Of a stretch of DNA of 64,000 nt, positions 8,214-13,759 are shown in pieces. The position numbers and the translations under genes are program-made. Origin of the DNA: Vezdaea acicularis (lineage: Eukaryota); assembly GCA_026025075.1 (NCBI GenBank), contig JAPEUI010000039.1, positions 1-64,000 on the forward strand, given 5' to 3'. The stretch's first letter is position 1. Each line of letters opens with the position of its first letter. The notes beneath the pieces are model-generated. The model did no database searches and had not been told where the DNA came from. It saw only the letters and a program-made list of their open reading frames with translations.

Positions 8214-8678
8214 TTGTGGGAAATGAGGCACAGCGTAGAAATCGATGAGATAGCTTTGTTAGTATATGGTCGTGAGAACGAGGTCGTGAATTAAACAACT
8301 ATGGGTGGTAGGCTTCTGTATTAATCAAGGAGCTCAAAGACTCCGATGATCGAAGGTCATTGTGTATGAAGAGGAGCGCATCCGAGCCTTTTAGGCTTGA
8401 ACTCAAAGAGTTCTTATATCAAAGCCATCTCCACAGGCAAGACATGGCTGGCATACACATACAAAGGAAGCTATGAAAAATATTGCCAAACCCCAGCGAA
8501 TTATCGTCCAAGGAATACAAATCATGGCTCAGTGATTCAATCGTTCTATACTTGGGGAAAGCTTCAGAGGCAATCTAGCACCAAAAACTAAAGCATAAGA
8601 AATACTGGGTCTTAATGAGTGTTCTCTGGAAAGCTAACGGCATTTCGATTCAAAAGCACCAAACGCGAATCTGTTTGA

Positions 8679-10369
8679 TCAGATATAGTGCTCTCCAAGG
8701 CGCGGAGCCCCCCCTTTCCAATCGTTGCGTTCATAATAGCGGAAAACAAGGTCATATCCATCAAGATCGTGCACAATGCGGTCGATTCGGCGATATCCAG
8801 CTAGGTGCTCCATGCGTGCGCTCCGCTTTGCAGCACTTAATTGTAAGGTTTGCTCTTTTTTCTGCCAGCTACTGCTGGGTTTCGCTTGTCCGTTGGTTGC
8901 CTGAATACCTTTCGCTTCAAAGAGAGTAACACTGAATCTTCCTGGCCGAAAGATCTTCACAACCTGCTCAACCACTTCAGCAGTCTCTGTTCCACTCTGA
9001 CGGCCCGGGACGTTCGTTTCAAAGGAAGCGAACGAGCAGTGGGGCTCAGGGGTGACGTGTACAGTGAAGTAGTGCGTGGGGCTGGTTTCTTTAGTACCAG
9101 GGGGAGCCGGGATGACGCCGTTGGCAGAAAACCCGCATGGCGTAAAAAGATACGCATCCACACGGGCGTCAGGGTAACGGGACTTCGGATACACGTCAGA
9201 AAGGCCGCAAGAATCTGACACAACGGTCCCTAAGCCATGACCCTCCGTAGAAAATTCCTTAGGCAGATACTCCTCGTCATCCGAAGAACCAAGCTCGCTG
9301 TTTTCGGAAGAAGTGTTGCTGAATACATCGATCTCTCCTTTGTAGTTGCCACACACACCTTTCTTGCCATTTGCCTTAAGTGTTAGGCCATCAATTCCTC
9401 CTTCTCTCATGGTTAGTAGTCCACCAGGGTACACAAAGCGAGCTGGACGACTCTTTTCGGCAAACCAACCCTCCGCGACCGCACTCGCGTTCTCCAGATA
9501 GAACTGTTTTGCATTCTCTGGATCAAGGTCGGTCATCAAAATTTCAAGCGTCTCGTCTTGGGCATCGTCAATCCCTAGCTCCGTAGCCACAGTGTTATTC
9601 ATGATGGGAACTTCAAGCAGCTTTGTCCGTGTCTCAAGTTCTTCGCTTTTGTCAAGTACAGGAGAAGCCGGTGGGGTGAGCGCAGTCCCTGGACCAGTCA
9701 AATACAAATACCAATGTTCCCCATTCATCTTTCCAACCATGTAAGCACTCCCACCAATGAAGTGCCTGTCCAAGTATCTGACTTCATCCCTCCAACTACG
9801 GTGCGGGCCATGTTGCTTCTCCGGATGCAGAAAGTTTTTCCTGCTATAGAAAACTCTATAGGGAATTGCTGCAGTTGCCGTTCCTTTCAGTGGATCGCCT
9901 TTACGATGTGGGAACCCTGCCGAAAGTGCTGCGATTTCTAGCATCCGAGGCACTCCAGACAGAAGCGTCGTAGTGCCACAAGTCTTCAAGATTAGCTTAT
10001 GCGGGAAGACAAACATGCTTGATTCGGAGAGCAAATAAGCGTCGACATGGTCAGACTCGACCACAGACAACACTCTGCAATTGACTATATCCAGCATCTC
10101 CTTCCAAACGCCAGCTGGCACAACCTTCAGCCCTAGTGGAGCCACAGAGCTATCAAGGCTTTTGGGGGAAGCATTGAACCATATTTCAAGAAGCTTCTCA
10201 GGACCTTGAATAATGTGAGTCGAGAGCTTAGAGGACCTAAACTATATGACATACCTTCAAAGGCATTGCTAGAGTCAAGGTCAATCAAAGCCTCACGATT
10301 GATCGTCAGATGAGGGGTTCCGTCGGATGGCGAAAAAGTATAATTCCTTGGAATGTCGATATTGACCAT
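8679..10369 (-). CDS. SPE2: S-adenosylmethionine decarboxylase proenzyme
   Basis: AFEG|PEKLLEIWF across intron 10254-10205; YLLSESSMFV self-cleavage site, LKTCGTT, PCGFSAN, HVTPE. Confidence 0.95.
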
Positions 10370-11137
10370 CTCCGTGCTCTGGTCTGAGGTTGATGACAGG
10401 TTGATTGATGTATGGCTTTTGGTGAATCCTCGCGACGTTTCAATTTCCTTGGGAGGGGCGCTGAGACTCAATCTGCCACCCAGACGAACGGTGCGGTGTT
10501 CGCCTGAGAAGAGATGGCCCACAGCTAGGGCGGAGAGTTGGTTTGCTAGGAACACCAGCAGTGACTGTGATATGAGCTATTTGCCTCACTGGGCGTTAAG
10601 GAGGTCGAGCGGATGAAAGGATGAAAATGATCTTTTCTAGAGCAATGATGGTCTTTTTAAGTCCTCGAACTGGAAGATACCGATACCTTAGCAAAGTACC
10701 GGGTCTAGCAGACGAGGATATCTGCTCCTATAGAGAGTGGGTTCAGCTGTGTGTGGGAGTAGAGGGTGTTATCTAGGTCTTCAGAGGAGCCCAGTCAGCC
10801 TTTCATCATGTGGAATGGTAACAGAAACTTTAAGAGCTTCGAGACAGCTTGTTATGCAAGTTGTAAAAAACGTAGTGTGTCATGTCGTTGAAAGGGCATA
10901 AGCCCCAACTCGACAACTGCATTGTAAAAGAAGCAAGCAAACACGAGGCTACGCACTTTGCAGGCTTAGAGAGGAATCGTAGTAGGTCCTTGCGGCTCAT
11001 GAAGACCAGAGTTGGGGTCCTGTGTATTCAAGAAGCGGCCAGCTGGGACCTTTTAAATTTTGGGTAGGTAGGAGACGGCTTAGACAACAGCCAGTTGGGC
11101 GTTCTGTAAAGGAGCCGACAAGCTGTAGGCCCGGGTA

Positions 11138-11422
11138 CTAGGATGGTGCTCTTTGGTTGCTGAAGGCCTCAAAAAGTAATAACTCTCTCCAGTGTTGAGC
11201 GTCGGTGGCAACTGGGTCGTGTTCAAAATGCGGTGGATCAGCAAGGCGCCCGTCGCTGGTAGCGAGACTTGGACACGGCCTGGCGGGCTGCAGTCGATGT
11301 TGAGATGCTCGTGAAAATACGGCTGAACCCTCCAGGAAAGTAATTGAAAGCTCTGGCAGGGTGTAAGTGTTATGTCGTGGGAAGTTATACGAAGACTGGT
11401 GACGATCGTCAAACAAGCACAC
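11138..11422 (-). promoter_or_regulatory. Candidate non-AUG upstream ORF (94 codons, ends ...NQRAPS*) in the putative SPE2 5' leader
   Basis: Open frame on the SPE2 strand, GTG/CTG/ATT near-cognate starts only, Pro-Ser-stop end; no ATG on this strand from 11491 to 11001. Confidence 0.55.
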
Positions 11423-11896
11423 GGCCAGCCAGGTTCTTCAGGAAAAATTTGCGACTTTTTTTCTACGAGGGCTTCGGCTCTGGCCGGGGCGCATGGTGGT
11501 GAGGCCAAAGCGCAAAGCTGCTTCATTGCACGCTTATGCGAAAACAGCTCATCAACTCAATCTGGAACCCTACTTGCTCATCCACAGAGCATAGTGTATG
11601 GGTCGGCTGCACAGAGACGTAAGACAAGAATTAATATCTCTACCTCTCTTGCGACTGCAGGTACCGTACCCTCCAGGGTTCTCTCGTTGCAGCTTCCAAT
11701 GCTATATCCATGCTCAATCGCCTCAAGACCCCCCCCCCCCTTCTTCTTAGCTTTTTAAAGAGAGGTAGAGGCAGATGTCCCTGGGCTCAGCATAATGCTC
11801 AATTGAGAATACCGTCAGAGAAAACAATGTCCACTTCCTCTACGCAGAGCTTGTTCTGATCTCATGGCGAACTATCGATTGATGACTAAAATTATT

Positions 11897-13759
11897 TCAA
11901 GTCTTCGCGTTACTTAATACGTGCGACCATGTTTCAACCCCGTCAATGAAAAGTCGAAACCTTAATTCACTTTGCCTATCGGGCGAAGGCGCTGCAATTT
12001 CTATGGCTCCAAATTTGCTGTTTCCGTCGGGCAAATACCTAGAGAATATTACTGCTATATCAATGCGCAGAACCAGGGGACAAACTTGATCGCCACATCT
12101 TCTTCGTCCATCTGAGCGTATGTACGGACGGGTAGGTAGAATTGACTAAGCGGACTTGTTGAAAACTCGTGGACGGTGGCTGACCTAGGCCATTTGCCTC
12201 CCTTGGGTGGTGGAAAGGCCGTGGCTGCGAACTCATGACGATCTCCAGACAGAACGACTATTTGGATTTCACCACTGGACCCAACATCCCACATGGATTT
12301 TAGGATTACTTGCCGTTCCGCAAGATACCCGCCCCAAGTGTCCTGAGTACCTACCTGCCAGTTCTTGGTGAAAGGGACGGAAGAAACTATGATCTTCCAT
12401 CGAATGCCAGAAGGAACCGGTTTGTAAAGCCAAGCAAGGAGGTCTTCAAGTTGCTGAGCGCCAAGCATAGTTTTTGAGCTTGAATTGGAAGGTGCGGCGA
12501 ATTCTGAGGATCTATAACGACGGGTGTCGAGCAGGAAGAAGGCCGCTGGACCATGTACGAAGGAGAAATAAGAAGCCTCGGGTCTTACCTTGGGAGGGTT
12601 CACTGAGACATGATAGTTGATCCAAGGATCTGCCGCCGCAACATATAGACCAGTCGTATTTTTGTCCCAATCATTCGCAATCTCATGGTCATCTAGGACA
12701 TGGATCCATGGCAGGTTCTCGGAAACAGAAGGCCAATCAGGAGAGTTGTATACCATGCGATATTCTTGTCGATAAGTCTCGATATCAGCACCAAACCGTC
12801 GTGGAACGTCGATGTATATAAAGTCCCCAAGAAAGAGCATGAATTGAGGATGTAGCCTCGAGATCCAAGGGCTCAGATGTCGAAATCCTGGAATTACAAG
12901 AGGGTGATGGAGTGGATTATACGGAAAGTGCGGCTTGATACAGCTCGAGGTGAAGAAAGTGAAGAGGTCATCGGTTTTCGTTGATGTTCGACCGGGTTCA
13001 TGGGCGGTCTTGAAAAATCCCGTGTGATTGTTAGAAGTCTTATATTGATAATAAGTATCCGGTCTCAGACGAGAAATTGTTAGTGGCATAGTAAAGTCCG
13101 TATCCTTAGATAGCGCCGAAACCGTGGCGCCTATATTCCAAGGCCCTGCGTGATCAACATTTGCCGACGACTTTACTATGCGATGTGAGAGAACAATAGG
13201 TAAATTAGACAGCACCGGCTCCCGAACCAATACTCTTGCGCTATGATCAGAAACAAACCCGACCCGAGAGAACGCGAGGTCGTGACTGGAATACAGAAGG
13301 TGTCCTCGAAACACCACGTCAATAACTGCTAAAGTAAGGAAGATATTGATCGCGGCAACTGTACAGCTCAGGATCTTGGAGCTGCAGATAGGCAGTCCGA
13401 GAAATATAGCCTTTAGGAACGATCGAATTGTATTTGATCGTCCGTTCGGTCTCTCTTTAGGTTCCCCGTTCCTCAGAGTCCGATGAGGAGTAGCAAAATA
13501 AATTACAATGAATGATGATAGATAGATTGCCAGTAAAGAATATATTGTAGGGGGGAAATGCTGTTGGACATCAGCCACAGACAGTCAATCTTGCCGACAA
13601 CTACTGACATGACCAGGTATCTGGAAAATTTCATTAGATCCTGGATATCCAGATGCTGTCACGTTTACGGAGGTTTTTACAGACCCATCGGAAAAACACG
13701 TACGCTGCTAGGCGTAAAGACGTGGAGCTTATACCAGCCAAGAGTGATAAGAGAGACAT
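11897..13759 (-). CDS. PhoD-like alkaline phosphatase family membrane protein
   Basis: FLGDFIYID, LDDHEIANDW, LDTRRYRS, LSGDRHE metallophosphatase motifs; exon 1 13759-13685, 12-nt microexon 13620-13609, last exon YLPDGNSKFGA ending 11897. Confidence 0.88.

Follow-up and report, generated by a model that had tools for sequence, protein, structure and literature searches.

Does the leader of the S-adenosylmethionine decarboxylase gene of Vezdaea acicularis encode a polyamine sensor that dispenses with an AUG start codon? The question was raised by an open frame in the window analysed here, a stretch of 64,000 nucleotides (contig JAPEUI010000039.1, positions 1 to 64,000); unless otherwise stated, the features discussed lie on the minus strand. 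The gene, SPE2, has its main ORF at 8679..10369 (Pfam PF01536, E 2.8e-111), divided into exon 1 (10369-10255) and exon 2 (10204-8679) by a predicted 50-nt intron whose limits were read from the sequence. Its AUG is in a strong context (GAG-AUG-G, with G at -3), and this start context and the N-terminus are common to the relatives. The next gene upstream, on the same strand, is PhoD-like according to Pfam. In the interval between the two genes, the original prediction had placed an AUG-less frame of about 95 codons, ending in Pro-Ser-stop, as a device for polyamine feedback on SPE2. We hold with considerable confidence to a different, joint reading: the frame arose by chance, and the real element in this leader is the known uORF of Pezizomycotina AdoMetDC genes.

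As a piece of sequence, the frame was described accurately. A stop-to-stop open frame of 99 codons runs from 11437 to 11138 and ends QHWRELLLFEAFSNQRAPS-UAG (...FEAFSNQRAPS-UAG), 768 nt from the SPE2 AUG at 10369. It holds no AUG, only eight in-frame near-cognate codons: CUG 11428, GUG 11422, UUG 11416, CUG 11359, AUU 11344, CUG 11335, CUG 11293 and AGG 11281. Among its CUG, GUG, UUG and AUU codons, a purine at -3 is found for just two, CUG 11359 (A) and GUG 11422 (G); CUG 11359, from which a product of 73 aa would be made, has the best context. The AUG-free stretch of some 490 nt (11491-11001) is likewise there: no minus-strand AUG occurs between 11494 and 11000, and this gap is the longest without an AUG on that strand of the window. 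The region from 10300 to 11700 is single-copy in its own genome. Just above the frame is an ORF of 18 codons (11494-11438), beginning with an AUG whose context (ACCACC-AUG) is strong. This ORF is in phase with the frame and parted from it by a single UGA; read-through of this UGA would give an AUG-started Pro-Ser-stop frame, only if transcription starts above 11494.

Known systems resemble the proposed frame in part. Polyamine-dependent pausing has been described on other uORFs in passages of PMC2811004 and, for HOL1 and AZIN1, of PMC10855120. The Pro-Ser-stop uORFs of plant AdoMetDC and yeast HOL1 have, as published in those passages, the same last two codons as the proposed frame, but they are AUG-started and conserved. 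The uCCs of ODC and antizyme-inhibitor mRNAs, according to the corresponding passages of PMC2811004, are conserved, have a conserved non-AUG start in good context and carry Pro-Pro near the C-terminus. The proposed frame is like a uCC in its length (about 100 codons in Pezizomycotina ODC), its near-cognate starts and its PS end. Unlike a uCC, it is unconserved, and no adjacent prolines lie near the C-terminus of 11437-11138: the sole Pro-Pro occupies residues 69-70 of 99, which leaves it 30 residues short of the end.

Is there any trace of the frame in other SPE2 leaders? The relatives used were metagenome contigs searched with SPE2, the best 80 of 151 being kept; they are distant, with best SPE2 segments 56-65% identical. 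TBLASTN with the 99-aa peptide found no match in the 79 upstream regions longer than 50 nt, and the best hit (E 0.22) was on the opposite strand, about 2.7 kb upstream. With nhmmer, neither the frame nor its last 90 nt was found in any of 67 regions of 900+ nt (0/67, E<0.01); two neighbouring blocks, serving as positive controls, were found in 51/67 and 50/67 of the same regions. A stop-anchored ungapped score for the last 25 residues reached 23 at best, while 30 shuffled queries spanned 6-29. A fixed Pro-Ser-stop in the relatives' leaders was not found either: in the matching 600 nt before the conserved uORF, 45 relatives have 900 stops in all, of which 6 are Pro-Ser-stops, and the positions of these are scattered. 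Neither Pfam nor a protein collection (proteins of 54-174 residues) gave a match to the 99-aa peptide. The original prediction had itself named a lack of peptide conservation in orthologous leaders as grounds for abandoning it, and such a lack was found in every comparison, all with distant relatives. Among these, 11437-11138 has no conserved C-terminal peptide of the uCC kind and no conserved near-cognate start in good context, there being no alignable sequence. Since all the relatives are distant, a young, lineage-restricted uORF would escape detection; a lineage-specific role for the frame is given a very slim chance. A conserved upstream coding region of any kind among the relatives was also considered and rejected, as matches occurred just between related sequences, in several frames and across stops.

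How much of the frame does chance account for? When the 1527-nt PhoD-SPE2 interval was dinucleotide-shuffled 2000 times, 55% of the shuffles had at least one frame of 99+ codons and 44% had at least one PS-stop. A PS-stop closed a frame of 60+ codons in 4% of the shuffles and one of 90+ codons in 1%, a 60+ codon frame with a penultimate proline was present in 28%, and an AUG-free gap of 494+ nt in 2%. In the six frames of the window, Pro-Ser precedes 31 of 6024 stops and ends 2 of the 130 frames of 90+ codons; another PS-stop is found 325 nt upstream of that of the proposed frame, within the same PhoD-SPE2 interval. The combination of 90+ codons with a PS-stop is uncommon at a single locus and is to be expected now and then in a scan. 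The relatives give a similar picture in the matching 600 nt: a frame of 90+ codons is present in 25 of 45, and one relative (L052) has a 123-codon frame ending in a PS-stop, unlike the proposed frame in sequence and position. The codon-usage score of the proposed frame is -0.18, compared with -0.16 and -0.17 for the other two frames, in a weak test that clearly separated 3 of 4 control genes. Overlapping the proposed frame is another open frame of 158 codons (11556-11080), with an AUG at 11526 (148 aa), from which it follows that long frames arise easily in this interval; Pfam gave no match for this 158-aa frame or for a 147-aa frame at 10576-10133. The proposed frame has most likely arisen by chance, in leader DNA that is rich in C and poor in AUG.

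Why is this DNA so poor in AUGs? Over the 400 nt that precede the uORF, 34 non-redundant relatives together have 91 AUGs where 147.7 are expected; the reverse-strand CAT count in the same 400 nt is 221 against 234.4, and the next 400 nt upstream have 281 AUGs against 277.5, with no depletion. Such strand-specific depletion suggests a long leader, and hence the mRNA may include the proposed frame, probably a part of it. The C skew of the relatives also rises from about -400, and one contig, L041, extends to 393 nt ahead of the uORF and, with both introns missing, has the look of a transcript. Most of the AUG-free stretch (11001-11491) probably belongs to a long SPE2 mRNA leader, as its 5' part, and the start of this leader would map from the relatives to near 11400. 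It is somewhat unlikely, in our estimate, that transcription starts downstream of the proposed frame, which would then be promoter DNA and never enter the mRNA. The occurrence of an AUG within 300 nt upstream of the uORF in 22/34 relatives favors a promoter, just 12/34 being AUG-free for 300+ nt, so that long AUG-free leaders are not universal; the strand-specific depletion, the C skew to about -400 and the reach of L041 to -393 argue against it. A promoter location would be compatible with the chance origin that we prefer. The AUG-free stretch is best read as the result of ordinary selection against upstream AUGs in a long leader, and no non-AUG gene is needed.

Two sets of short words were seen in this region. 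The window has two GAUGAG words (11582 and 11553) and a AAAUUUUU tract (about 11450) between 11582 and 11441, which we take to resemble the PAC and RRPE growth-promoter elements of yeast; in the relatives, GAUGAG/CUCAUC words peak 500-700 nt upstream (12 of 23 counted). Closer to the uORF, at 11094-11077, a short motif recurs at a similar position, some 90 nt ahead of its AUG. Here, [C/G]UGGC occurs in 16/34 relatives (shuffle mean 1.8, max 6) as well as in the window, and a GGCU...AGCC hairpin in 9/34 (shuffle mean 0.4, max 4) as well as in the window, an enrichment that is overstated for both, since the patterns were chosen after the sequences had been viewed.

What, then, is conserved in the leader? 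The relatives' sequence matches to it begin at the AUG at 11000, between the proposed frame and SPE2 and 137 nt downstream of the former. This AUG, which did not figure in the original prediction, opens a conserved, spliced uORF. Exon a (10957..11000) has its AUG in a weak context (GUCUUC-AUG-A) and contains codons 1-14 and two bases of codon 15. It is followed by an intron of 178 nt (10779..10956) with a GUGCGU donor, a GCUGAC branch near 10799 and an AAG acceptor, and by exon b (10769..10778), which completes Lys15 and adds Pro-Arg-UAA. The predicted spliced product (11000-10957 + 10778-10769) has 17 codons and reads MSRKDLLRFLSKPAKPR-stop; we infer from the sequence that it is spliced in this way in Vezdaea acicularis. 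Because a position-conserved intron splits the uORF, scanning genomic DNA for ORFs does not reveal it. This intron also contains each of the five other AUGs between 11000 and 10369, and the spliced leader would therefore have one upstream AUG, that at 11000, from 11491 to the SPE2 start.

Compared across the relatives by block profiles, the exon a block is present in 52 of 68 distinct relatives. Nine of the 16 that are missing it are contigs too short to reach it; the other seven (L025, L026, L028, L061, L062, L066 and L067) have enough upstream sequence and are without the block, which indicates that the uORF is dispensable or much changed in some lineages. The block follows the pattern M-x-x-x-D-L-L/V-R-F-L-S-K-P-A-K, and a GT donor cuts it after two bases of codon 15. 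K-P-R-stop was reconstructed in 50 of 53 block-bearing regions, window included, 49 of them with an AUG start, by a procedure that required Pro-Arg-stop; in a looser search for Pro-any-stop, Arg was the first candidate in every row resolved. The three rows outside the pattern are L049 and L069, which have a K-P-R-stop ending by eye, and L063, which looks degenerate. The position and phase of the intron are identical in all 47 reconstructed intron-bearing copies, each with a GT donor, and the uORF is joined, with no intron, in L041, L071 and L080. A profile of the branch/acceptor block did not extend beyond the window. Over codons 6-17, there are 269 synonymous and 18 non-synonymous codon differences among 40 distinct 54-nt sequences, in counts that take the window as the single reference and in which related sequences repeat events. 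Codon comparison thus shows the 17-residue peptide, with its invariant K-P-R-stop, to be under purifying selection. The base at -3 of the AUG is U in 49/49 AUG-started copies, window included, which points to leaky scanning as the regulated step.

A few copies depart from this arrangement. L063 (about 2846-2915) has the uORF block with a CUG at the start position and a degenerate peptide, and in L001 (about 1708-1765) the C-terminal part, the intron and the Pro-Arg-stop are intact and there is no in-frame AUG; decay, assembly error or non-AUG use are all possible for these AUG-less copies. L013 and L016 have in common an extra 13-codon AUG uORF, 64-66 nt before the uORF AUG and ending RDIVQF-stop, which may reflect simple relatedness. 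Two uORFs have been reported in the N. crassa leader, according to passages of PMC5640933.

The uORF matches an element already in print. Passages of Ivanov, Atkins and Michael (NAR 2010, PMC2811004) describe a uORF with a penultimate proline in Pezizomycotina AdoMetDC leaders. In their Suppl. Fig. 1A, exactly the peptide MSRKDLLRFLSKPAKPR is given for 5 of the 25 species, namely Coccidioides posadasii, C. immitis, Ajellomyces capsulatus, Uncinocarpus reesii and Trichophyton rubrum. The window's uORF agrees with the published consensus MSPKDLLRFLSKPAKPR at 15 of 17 residues, penultimate proline included, and both have a pyrimidine at -3. Further traits that mark the Pezizomycotina AdoMetDC uORF are also found here: an AUG (at 11000), a stop-to-AUG distance of 399 nt, PF01536 downstream and synonymous bias. 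That distance is 405 and 441 nt in the published cases. The sequence given in print is spliced RNA, and the passages concerned make no mention of the intron or of hairpins downstream. The proposed PS-stop frame is distinct from the uORF set out in these passages. The penultimate proline of the window's uORF is as in the plant AdoMetDC and HOL1 uORFs, in the published passages on these; the fungal AdoMetDC uORF ends in Pro-Arg-stop, whereas Pro-Ser-stop is what was tested in yeast.

Conservation continues downstream of the uORF. The spacer from the uORF stop to the main AUG, 399 nt in the window and 331-528 nt in the relatives, contains three conserved hairpins. The first, which is long and imperfect (10662..10718; fold z -3.0), lies 50 nt after the uORF stop. 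Its block was found in 44 of 69 regions at E<1e-3, and 95.1% of cells are paired in 26 sequences, but its covariation does not stand out clearly, since 19/500 and 82/500 shuffles scored as high. The second is a small 6-bp hairpin (10544..10560), in which 96% of cells are paired in 42 sequences and 2 of the 6 pairs have changes on both sides. The third (10471..10515) has an 11-bp upper stem, 10508-10498 with 10489-10479, and its block was found in 58 of 69 regions at E<1e-3. Taking the second and third together in the 42 sequences, 8 of 25 pairs change on both sides, compared with 3.9 +/- 1.1 in shuffles (0/500 as high), in a test that ignores relatedness and whose structure was defined manually, by eye and from the fold of the window, a choice that favors it over slid controls. 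RNAalifold alone, given the 42-sequence alignment, recovered the small hairpin and missed the 11-bp stem. The 11-bp hairpin block is kept in four relatives from which the uORF block is absent (L061, L062, L066 and L067), which shows that the two elements are separable. We rejected a second intron in the spacer, since L041 and L071, both probably transcripts, still have 411 and 432 nt there and the published distances agree.

One of these hairpins also appears to be known. The SDC RNA motif, as described in passages of Li and Breaker (BMC Genomics 2017, PMC5640933), is a hairpin found ahead of fungal SAM decarboxylase genes, with a stem of 11 bp and in a leader with uORFs and splice sites; disrupting the hairpin raised reporter output in N. 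crassa. The third spacer hairpin (10515-10471) has the 11-bp stem and the location upstream of SAM decarboxylase, and it is likely to be the SDC motif, as judged from the description in the published text; that text describes one hairpin, whereas the spacer here has three that are conserved. An Rfam scan of 8500-13000 gave no relevant match, the one hit being at chance level (E 0.62). It had been supposed that a previously reported SAM-decarboxylase leader motif might overlap the proposed frame. Such a motif has indeed been published, but the SDC-like hairpin is about 620 nt downstream of the frame, and no spacer hairpin overlaps 11138-11428.

How might this leader work? The idea of polyamine feedback through a uORF fits the conserved anatomy of the SPE2 leader; the non-AUG PS-stop frame as its device finds no support, being unconserved in every comparison. 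By analogy with the uORFs on which polyamines cause pausing, the Pro-Arg-stop uORF is probably polyamine-responsive. At low polyamine, most scanning ribosomes would leak past the weak uAUG, and SAM decarboxylase would be made. At high polyamine, ribosomes on the uORF would pause at the Pro-Arg-stop and block scanning, and queuing behind the pause would raise further initiation at the weak uAUG, so that enzyme output would fall. The spacer hairpins would presumably be an added brake on scanning.

It is also conceivable, although unlikely, that the uORF and hairpins are real repressors but not polyamine sensors, and that they set a low constitutive level or answer to something else, for example SAM, alternative splicing or the general stringency of start-codon choice. 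Passages of PMC5640933 provide several points for this: in N. crassa there is an alternative splice form without uORFs, the hairpin bound neither spermidine nor spermine in probing assays, and Li and Breaker left uORF-mediated regulation open. The literature covered, which included few subscription papers, contained no direct polyamine test of the uORF and no experiment on the polyamine response of a Pro-Arg-stop uORF. On the other hand, the penultimate proline is common to the AdoMetDC uORFs of other groups, including the polyamine-responsive plant ones. A splicing switch also finds little footing here, as a search for an N. crassa-like alternative donor upstream of the uAUG gave none that was strong in the window, and donor-like words, found in 16/34 relatives compared with 12.4 in shuffles (max 20), are not enriched. 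Repressors of this kind would be compatible with a chance origin of the proposed frame.

Highly improbable is the reading of the frame as a lineage-specific non-AUG uORF (CUG 11359, 73 aa) whose Pro-Ser-stop would act as a second polyamine- and eIF5A-sensitive stall in tandem with the AUG uORF: in its favor, polyamine-responsive uORFs elsewhere close with a PS-stop, the surrounding sequence probably belongs to the leader, the base at -3 of CUG 11359 is A and just 1% of shuffles produced a PS-stop in a frame of 90+ codons, but the frame is unconserved in every comparison, has no coding-like codon bias (in the weak test, with controls clear in 3/4), is accompanied by a second chance PS-stop 325 nt upstream in the same interval and would take a role already filled by the conserved uORF. 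If it were true, one mRNA would carry a non-AUG queuing sensor, a termination-stall sensor and a three-hairpin RNA-structure brake, and a newly born polyamine sensor would have been caught before spreading. In the literature covered, again with few subscription papers, no fungal SPE2 leader was reported to have a non-AUG PS-stop frame.

The conserved regulator of the SPE2 leader is thus one already known, its uORF having been in print since 2010 and its leader hairpin since 2017. What the present analysis adds is the position-conserved intron of the uORF, the U at -3 in 49/49 copies and the presence of three conserved spacer hairpins rather than one, all three being of use for annotation and for testing. 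If the proposed PS-stop frame were functional after all, it would represent a polyamine sensor with a non-AUG start that has evolved recently on top of an older one. On the preferred reading, in which that frame is due to chance, polyamine-linked control of SPE2 would plausibly be exerted through the AUG uORF ending in Pro-Arg.
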